Positions 47,251 through 50,200 are shown, counted from the stretch's first letter. The stretch is DNA of 64,000 bases from an uncultured bacterium (GCA_938074205.1 CALJES010000012.1:192080-256079), one strand, 5' to 3'. Numbers and translations: made by a program. The notes: generated by a model from the letters alone, not told the origin.

Positions 47251-50200
47251 TTGGTTATGAGAAAAACCAATTTGATACTTCTGGCATTACTTGCCTCATT
47301 TGCAGCCGGCGCACAACTCGCCCATGCACAAGTCCCCGTAATTGCTATTGATCCTCCAGTGCCTTCTGTCGTCATGACAGACGGGCCTAATCCTGCACCG
47401 GATGTCGTTTTCAATGTTACGGTTGATAACGCCACCAATATAAATATTACGGCGGGCGACATTACCGTTCGTACGAGACCTCCCAATGTACGACAGGCGG
47501 CAAACCAACAGGCTGCTGCGGATCGGATAGTTGTTTTAAACGGCGATACACCGAACCCAATGGTTATCCTTGAGGGGGCCGGGCTCCATGGTGATGGTTA
47601 CATCTGGATCGAGATTGCAGGTTCGACGTGTTCAAATGATGAGGGGGATGCGAAAGACGCAGTGAGTCCAGAGCTTCGCGTCGACGCGACGCCTCCGGAT
47701 GTAAGGCTGACCGCGGCTGACGGCAATCCAACTGTGGCTAAGCCTTGTGATCCAACGACCGGTATGCTCACGTTCGTCGTCGAGTTCATCGACGAAAGTG
47801 AATCGGTTACCGGTTTCGACGCGGACGATGTTCTAATCAACGGCGTACCTGCTACTGATCCGGAGTGTTACGCCGTTTCTGCGCATTTTCCGTCTGGAGC
47901 AAGCTGTTTAGGTCCTGCCTGTGAAGTTTCGGGTTCGGGCAAAAGTTACTTAGTTGTGATCTATCCTCGCACCGATGGTCCGTTTACAATCCAGATCGCG
48001 GCGAAGGCAGCGACAGATGACGTTGGATGGGAGAGCACGGCTTCGAATGAAGTGACAGTTCCATACACAGATGCTCCACGGATCAATATACAGGCGCTCT
48101 CGCCTCCCAATACCAACAGCAAAACAATCAATTTTATGGTGGAGTTCAGTAAGCCTGTTCACGGCTTCGGACTTGGAGACGTAAGGGTAGATCCGCCCAC
48201 CACTCCGGGTGCGGCAGGCGGTACAAAAACGGTCGTGGTGACTGGTACCGGCGAACCTCTTTCTGAGGGACAGGTCTATTACGTCGGCGTAAGCGGATGC
48301 ACTTATTCCGGTTTTGTCAGATTGTTCGTAATGTGCAGTCAGGATAATCCCGATCAATCAGACTGGTGGTCTTCAGAGGATTCGTGTACAGAACCTCAGG
48401 TCAATTATGACGGTACCCCTCCGGACTCTCTAACCATTACCACTCCCCCCGACTTGCCCCAGCCTCCAGAGTATTCCGGCACGTATACAACTGCAAACAC
48501 CAAGATCGACATTGCGGGAACGGCACACGACGACGTAGGTATTTCTCGCGTTACTTGGAGCAACGACCGAGGGGGAAGCGGTCCGTGCGTTGGCACTTCA
48601 AACTGGTACGTGCGAGGCATCTATCTGAAGCCTGGGAGAAACTTGATAACCATTACTGCTGCTGACGCTGCCGGTAATACGCTAAGCTACTATTTGACCG
48701 TCAATTGCACAAACGAATACTCGTCTGAGACCGTTGATGCATACAGGGAAGACATCGAACGCGTTGGCGAGTACTCTTCGATTACGCTAGATGCAAGCGG
48801 TAATCCCAGAATTGCCTACTACAAGTACATCAATGATACTCATGGTGTTCTCAGATACGCCTACTACAATGGGCAGGGTTGGCACATCGAAGACGTAGAT
48901 GGTAACAGTCCCGGAAGTGAGGATGATAACGTTGGGCGATATACGTCCATAAAAGTCGATGCCCAAGGCAACCCTCACATAAGCTACTACGATGTTACCA
49001 ACGGCAATCTGATGTACGCTGTGTGGCGGGCTGGCACCTGGCAGATTACGACAGTCGACGGCTATATCAGCGCCACGGACGACGTCGGTCAATTTACATC
49101 GCTGGCACTTTATAATGGGCTGCCGCGCATCGCGTACTATGACGTGGCGAAGGGAGATCTGAAATACGCTAGCTATGATGGCACCAAGTGGACAAAGACT
49201 GTCGTCGACAGCACTGGCGATGTCGGCAGATTTGCTTCACTTGCGCTGGATCCGAGCACCGGGTTACCACGGATAGCCTACTATGACTCCACAAACAAGG
49301 ATTTGAAATATGCTGCTTACGACGGCAGCGCGTGGAACATATCAACAGTCGCATCGACTGGCGATGTGGGCCAGTACTGTTCGTTAGCGTTGGATTCTGA
49401 TACCGGATATCCGCGCATTGCTTACTACGACAACACGAATAAGGACCTCGTATATGCTGCCTGGGACGGCAGCGAATGGCGTTTCAGCACTGTCGATTCC
49501 GATGGTGACGTTGGGCGATATTGTTCGCTTGCTCTTTACAATGGGCTGCCCCGGATAGCCTACTACGATGGCGAGTCAAGCAGGAAAGATCTCAAGTACG
49601 CCGAAGGCAATGCTGCTGTTGACCCAACGTGGACGCTAACGGTCTTGGACGACGGCGTTGCAGAGGTGGGAGTCAGCACATACGACGTGGGTCAATATGC
49701 TTCTTTGGCTCTCGACTCCGCAGGCGGAGCGCACATAAGTTACTATGACGCAACCACGTCGCCTTTGCGCAATACGCTCAAATATATCTATCGAGCATCA
49801 GGGCCCACGTGCGTTGTAGAGCCTCTTAGCCCCAGCCCTACAAATATGTCACCTGTAAGCTTCAAAATTACTTTTTCCAATCCTGTCACAGGTTTTACTG
49901 TATCGGACATACTTGTGAGCGAAGGCACGGCAGGTGCGCTGACGCAGCTAGACAGCACCGGCTACCGGTTCGAGGTTTATCCCAATTCGATACCTGCTCC
50001 GGGTAACTCGTATGTGAATGTGAGAGTTAAAGTTCCGGCTGGTGCGGCTCGCTATGGGACGTTTGACAATCTGGAGTCTAACGAAGCACTTATTCAAGTC
50101 GACCGAATTCCGCCTACCGTTCAGGTGAATCAGGATTACGTGCAGCCAGATCCTTCCGGCGCAAATTCACCGAACGTAGTTTACTTTACTGCAGTGTTCA

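Follow-up and report, generated by a model that had tools for sequence, protein, structure and literature searches.

A predicted seven-bladed beta-propeller inside a giant immunoglobulin-repeat protein of an Armatimonadota-like bacterium

Vgb, CylK and integrin alpha are seven-bladed beta-propellers. The literature places FoRham1 and the PLL-family lectins in the same seven-bladed class. PLL-family lectins bind sugars by Trp stacking at up to 7+7 inter-blade sites, while BNR_4-type lyases work through blade-specific His/Arg/Tyr residues in an anterior cleft that is asymmetric and bordered by blades 1, 3, 4 and 6. Propellers overlapping BNR_4 have also been noted before in predicted fibrillar adhesins (Monzon et al. 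2022), whose clusters 9 and 16, which we liken to the present case by description, hold ambiguous ‘adhesive’ propeller domains with a function that is ambiguous there too. Here we describe a seven-unit repeat block within a giant open reading frame (ORF) of an uncultured bacterium. It lies in a 64,000-nucleotide stretch of DNA (GCA_938074205.1 CALJES010000012.1:192080-256079), hereafter the window, and all positions are counted from the window’s first letter. The closest genome over the block was an Armatimonadota metagenome-assembled genome (MAG; 91% identity), and by sequence the host appears to be an Armatimonadota-like bacterium.

Our overall reading, to which we give a probability of about 0.6, is that the block folds into a propeller knob on a surface protein with an immunoglobulin (Ig)-like stalk, and that this knob is non-catalytic and binds a ligand, probably multivalently and probably a carbohydrate or another surface polymer.

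Seven repeats and their predicted fold

The [IV][AS]YY core of the repeat occurred seven times, at residues 521, 577, 627, 675, 723, 769 and 829 of the 2,885-residue ORF. Cut at their VG.Y start, the units covered nucleotides 48763–49824, the first six with the boundaries given for blades 1–6 in Table 1 and the seventh spanning residues 813–858. They ranged from 46 to 59 residues (a ~47-residue repeat), so that the length of about 46 residues assigned by the first-pass annotation held for some units and not for others. Its coordinates, 48750–49790, located the block correctly but ended slightly short at both sides, leaving out a closing strand and the tail of unit 7 (to ~49794).

The repeat profile used for the search drew on 49 other proteins, which supplied 382 units, and to avoid circularity it contained none of the window’s own. 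This independent profile matched the whole giant protein exactly seven times (58, 73, 66, 75, 75, 36 and 35 bits; independent E-values 3e-20 to 6e-13), against a top score of 4.3 bits in 200 shuffles of the block, and the count of seven first proposed from the sequence is therefore borne out.

AlphaFold2, given a 50-sequence alignment of the propeller, returned a model with a mean predicted local distance difference test (pLDDT) score of 91.7, a predicted template-modelling (pTM) score of 0.91 and 28 beta-strands, arranged as seven four-stranded antiparallel sheets in a closed ring. Nearly the whole of Vgb superposed on the model at 2.3 Å, and because Vgb is itself closed and seven-bladed, the ring of the model has to be closed and of seven blades too. 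The best Foldseek matches were propeller lectins (RSL at up to 20–21% identity, AofleA and SapL1; E ~2e-10 for the lectins) and sialidases. Model and superposition together make it very probable that residues ~490–848 form a closed seven-bladed beta-propeller with four strands per blade, as the first-pass annotation had supposed.

Each repeat (VG.Y.SLALD / G.P[RH]I[AS]YYD / ..DLKYA / DG..W..[ST]VD) would encode the four strands of one blade, save for the last unit, which is truncated in homologues as well. Upstream of the first unit, the segment YSSETVD aligned to repeat positions 37–43 (W..ETVD), in columns conserved in 60–88% of 50 aligned proteins (W 84%, V 84%, D 88%). We presume it to be the fourth strand, completing blade 7 in a proposed ‘velcro’ closure of the classic kind. 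With such a closure the chain would enter and leave the propeller at the same blade, side by side, and the propeller should therefore hang as a side knob on a fibre, here a stalk of 17 Big_12 Ig-like domains.

This count of 17 comes from a self-search (two copies before the propeller, five after it and ten past a P-domain-like module); Pfam recognized 12 stretches. The N terminus, read by eye from the translation, has the features of a signal peptide, with a basic N-region, a hydrophobic core and an AHA motif. Fibrillar adhesins are recognized by secretion, a repetitive stalk, an adhesive domain and an anchor; the giant protein has a signal-like N terminus and a tandem Ig-like stalk, and would act as a fibrillar-adhesin-like surface fibre.

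Family, known relatives and possible role

Of 1.84 billion cluster representatives (50%-identity clusters) searched, 21,043 matched the family at E≤1e-3, 14,460 at ≤1e-10 and 5,385 at ≤1e-30. Members occur in Chloroflexota, Bathyarchaeota and other MAGs, and one context is clearly archaeal. Arrays of seven units were found in 201 of the 268 members retrieved, of 14 units in 41 and of 21 units in six. Members of up to 700 residues mostly had seven units, the array starting at a median residue of 44, just past the signal peptide. Partner domains across the family include PKD, FlgD_ig, a type IX secretion system (T9SS) sorting tail, PEP-CTERM and PGF-type tails. The usual DUF7253/BNR_4-like members resemble the propeller described here in their ~46-residue consensus (VG.YTSLALD..G.PHISYYD.TN.DLKYA...G..W..ETVD), seven units, N-terminal closing strand and extracytoplasmic setting. 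They differ in being 400–700 residues long, built as signal peptide, propeller, Ig/PKD domains and sorting tail, whereas here the propeller sits inside a 2,885-residue Ig-repeat protein, after four Ig-like domains. An orthologue, P0125, is 83% identical to the giant protein and alike in architecture. Giant members among P0121–P0268 carry 14, 21, 28 or 35 units, that is, up to five propellers per chain (for example P0124, 6,384 residues).

BNR_4 and DUF7253 were the only Pfam families to match the block at E≤10. BNR_4 (PF15892) reached 32.9 bits on the isolated block through two short stretches (profile positions 227–269 of 272) and 26.7 bits on the whole protein, under its gathering cutoff of 27.3; DUF7253 (PF23911) reached 24.0 bits (profile positions 63–92 of 110), under a cutoff of 25.1. 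When the block was taken together with 49 homologues, 28 of the 50 proteins matched DUF7253 at E≤0.001 (best E 1e-11) and 20 matched BNR_4. Since more than half of these close homologues match it, the sequences support a real link to DUF7253 even though the copy in the giant protein is formally sub-threshold. A literature search on DUF7253 found no publications. NCBIfam gave no match to the block (E≤1) or to the whole protein. The comparison proposed earlier with SBBP (PF06739), YVTN (TIGR02276) and PQQ (PF01011/PF13360) propellers found nothing in Pfam (E≤10) or NCBIfam (E≤1), and we rejected membership of those families.

In the PDB, the only natural match of a single-sequence search was AofleA, at E 0.11, and neither this nor a family-profile search gave a natural entry related by sequence. 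The family profile did match de novo TIM barrels (sTIM11noCys-SB, E 5e-10, and the AI-designed F2C, F2N and F15C); we set these aside as a periodicity artefact, because one ~46-residue repeat meets another (I-[AS]-Y ... DLK-A ... VD) and their alpha/beta fold disagrees with an all-beta model. The family is very large, ancient, extracytoplasmic and functionally uncharacterised, Pfam covers it only marginally, and the propeller described here is an ordinary example of it.

Among described propellers, the six-bladed AAL/RSL lectins (RSL, AofleA, SapL1) provided the top structural matches and share I-x-V/Y-Y ... [WY]-D-G-x-x-W in each blade, the [WY]-D-G-x-x-W of our seven-bladed propeller resembling W-D-G-x-G-W of RSL. 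Pfam Fungal_lectin did not match the block at E≤10, and hhalign of the unit profile against an approximate RSL query sequence gave a probability of 17%, at which homology is not demonstrable. The seven-bladed PLL-family lectins (PLL, PHL, PLL3, BP39L, CV39L) showed a structural identity of only 6–11%, with no sequence-level match in the Pfam, NCBIfam or PDB searches; they are small soluble oligomers, whereas the propeller here is a module of a giant fibre.

Conservation in the family follows the repeat. All columns conserved in at least 60% of the 50 aligned proteins fell in the repeat consensus or the closing strand, and at that threshold there was no blade-specific conserved column, so that no blade has a conserved polar residue of its own. 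Judged from the alignment, such symmetry fits either a purely structural core or multivalent, PLL-like sites. We lean, by a narrow margin, towards a non-catalytic and possibly multivalent binding module, in which repeated top-face or inter-blade features would bind as they do in the seven-bladed PLL/BP39L lectins. The setting speaks for binding as well, with a signal-like N terminus, an Ig-like stalk and glycan-active genes nearby (GH38, heparinase II/III-like, BNR_2 and GlcNAc 2-epimerase). That the ligand is a glycan we propose only tentatively.

Several points weigh against this picture. Surface display, binding function, ligand class and velcro geometry are all inferred; what the analysis shows is the repeats, the predicted fold, the size and architecture of the family and the lack of an asymmetric conserved site. 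It may also be that every conserved position of the repeat serves structure alone, as the hydrogen-bond tetrad of WD40 proteins does. The canonical fucose-lectin site appears to be absent, because the fucose-binding Arg and Glu positions of RSL/AAL align with Ser/Ala and Tyr here, in alignments that are themselves weak (E 0.11; HH 17%), which leaves similarity to AAL/RSL at the level of the fold. The propeller begins at 17% of the length of the protein, and so not at its N-terminal tip, and the putative C-terminal anchor matches no known family. Finally, the gene neighbourhoods of three homologues (P0002, P0003 and P0021, one of them archaeal) have no informative gene in common.

A structural or protein–protein platform, integrin-alpha-like or S-layer/YVTN-like, would use the same ring for self-association of the fibre or docking of envelope proteins. 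No partner is evident, the homologue contexts share no conserved neighbour gene and no YVTN or other platform-family sequence was matched, and we consider this reading unlikely.

Less likely still is an enzyme presented to its polymer by the Ig stalk, whether a polysaccharide lyase or hydrolase like PL24/PL25/PL42/GH145 or a lyase/alkylase like Vgb or CylK. Each BNR_4 stretch spans only ~43 of 272 profile positions and the whole protein stays under the cutoff. BNR_4-type enzymes (PL42 FoRham1, GH145, PL24/PL25 ulvan lyases) have irregular blades and the Asp-box SxDxGxTW, whereas the blades here are near-identical and their turn, [YW]DGxxW, is one residue shorter and lacks the Ser; neither Asp-box nor catalytic cleft residues were found. 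Known lyases need blade-specific His/Arg/Tyr, and because conservation here is only seven-fold repeated, a single catalytic site of the BNR_4 type is improbable. At position 16, moreover, where the family typically has His, five of this protein’s seven blades have Arg.

Age of the repeat

The regularity of the units had been attributed at first to either recent expansion or strong constraint. Between units, identity was 38–71% for amino acids and 39–62% for nucleotides, and identical residues used the same codon in about one quarter to one half of cases. The consensus of 389 units from 50 proteins was V-G-x-Y-T-S-L-A-L-D-..-G-x-P-H-I-S-Y-Y-D-x-T-N-x-D-L-K-Y-A-...-G-x-x-W-x-I-E-T-V-D, with G2, S6, Y19, L27, A30 and W37 conserved in more than 90%. 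A young tandem duplication inside the gene, with no settled structure or function, is very improbable: the middle units 3–5 do share 59–71% protein identity, but only 55–62% as DNA, with a shared codon at just 8–14 of 26–33 identical residues, Tandem Repeats Finder detected no tandem repeat in the DNA from 46 to 53 kb (the repeat is seen in protein only), and the consensus and seven-unit layout are common to thousands of bacterial and archaeal proteins and to the 83%-identical orthologue. Recent expansion was rejected on this codon evidence, synonymous codons mostly differing between units, and the constraint half of the earlier alternative stands. The regularity of the repeats reflects old constraint, with purifying selection keeping a blade-stabilising core of S6, D10, H/R16, Y19, K28, Y29, W37 and D43.

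The rest of the giant protein, its neighbours and what the family may offer

The real start of the giant gene is likely the ATG at 47257 and not the TTG that opens the ORF, giving a product of 2,883 residues; an identical 2,883-residue product is also called on a 161-kb Logan contig. The features of the gene and its surroundings are collected in Table 1.

Table 1. Annotated features of the 64,000-nucleotide window, in order of position
Feature	Residues	Position (nt)	Strand	Basis or remark
HypF carbamoyltransferase		148–2448		
tRNA-Asn(GTT)		2668–2743		
LarC-type nickel-insertion protein		5284–6573		
GH38 alpha-mannosidase		8327–11212		glycan-active
Heparinase II/III-like lyase		26131–28854		glycan-active
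tRNA-Lys(TTT)		38182–38257		
BNR_2 sialidase-like propeller		40809–42098		glycan-active
Two adjacent prepilin-type N-methylation-motif (N_methyl) proteins, one with DUF1559		42206–43713		
684-residue secreted-looking protein, directly upstream of giant gene		44954–47008	+	no Pfam match at E≤0.001
Giant ORF, from TTG	1–2885	47251–55908	+	ORF list, translation
Putative Sec-type signal peptide MRKTNLILLALLASFAAGAQLAHA, followed by Q		47257–47328	+	read from translation
Two Big_12-like Ig domains, upstream of propeller	157–379	47719–48387	+	self-jackhmmer seeded with Big_12 copy
Ig-like domain adjoining propeller N-terminally	380–488	48388–48714	+	phmmer cross-matches inside orthologue P0125
Presumed N-terminal closing (velcro) strand YSSETVD	490–496	48718–48738	+	model strand E15-21; conserved columns
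Predicted blade 1	505–560	48763–48930	+	profile 58.4 bits; four model strands
Predicted blade 2	561–611	48931–49083	+	profile 72.5 bits
Predicted blade 3	612–657	49084–49221	+	profile 66.2 bits
Predicted blade 4	658–705	49222–49365	+	profile 74.5 bits
Predicted blade 5	706–753	49366–49509	+	profile 75.3 bits
Predicted blade 6, longer loops	754–812	49510–49686	+	profile 35.8 bits; pLDDT ~75 in long loop
Predicted blade 7, three strands, lacking the W..ETVD strand	813–848	49687–49794	+	profile 34.9 bits (positions 1–28); model strands E337-369
Five Big_12 Ig-like stalk domains after propeller	850–1500	49798–51750	+	Pfam, self-search
Proprotein-convertase P-domain-like module	1538–1642	51862–52176	+	Pfam PF01483, 49.3 bits (cutoff 21)
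Ten further Big_12 Ig-like stalk domains	1651–2593	52201–55029	+	Pfam, self-search
C-terminal ~186-residue domain, fold unassigned	2700–2885	55348–55905	+	no Pfam match; alignment of homologues
175-residue ORF overlapping the giant gene’s stop codon		55905–56432	+	no Pfam family on record
GlcNAc 2-epimerase		57260–58495		glycan-active
DUF6785/DUF6784		58545–60554		
GFO_IDH_MocA		60620–61495		

By phmmer within P0125, the Ig-like domains at residues 380–488 and 2594–2699 (48388–48714 and 55030–55347) are paralogous. The pair shares the motif D[DN][VI]G[IL]..V.W..., one copy preceding the propeller and the other the C-terminal domain. The fifth Big_12 domain after the propeller is interrupted by a 53-residue insert, DVIRWRNDSGGAFALEILTDAGETVDTLNLAPGEVKSFAAFWGPGTYKFRRKV (residues 1381–1433; 51391–51549), which is kept in P0125 and in none of the other retrieved proteins. 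The P-domain lies within the stalk with no protease domain in the protein, and is a second candidate binding module of the fibre.

An invariant CDLILPxP motif closes the C-terminal domain and with it the protein. A search of 5.8 billion proteins turned up only seven homologues of this domain, and two propeller proteins, P0154 and P0216, carry it as well. The domain may serve in sorting or anchoring; its AlphaFold2 model (pLDDT 51) was too poor to interpret.

The overlap of the 175-residue ORF with the stop codon of the giant gene suggests translational coupling. Its product has a hydrophobic N terminus ending in GAGC (a possible lipoprotein signal), an Ig-like segment like those flanking the propeller and a proline-rich tail. 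Gene content in the neighbourhood, with four glycan-active genes, fits a glycan-foraging heterotroph. Prepilin-type/DUF1559 genes, of which the window has an adjacent pair, are known from Planctomycetota-like genomes. Rfam found no family in the window beyond the two tRNAs at gathering score.

The locus itself carries little weight, since giant surface proteins with Ig repeats are already well known to contain propellers. The family might represent multivalent seven-site lectins, or binders of other polymers, of a class so far unrecognised and with a binding chemistry unlike that of RSL/AAL and PLL, which we regard as doubtful; were it true, the giant protein would be a glycan-grabbing Armatimonadota fibre. 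The family is abundant and uncharacterised, and the ligand of a single member would annotate many secreted proteins now called ‘hypothetical’.
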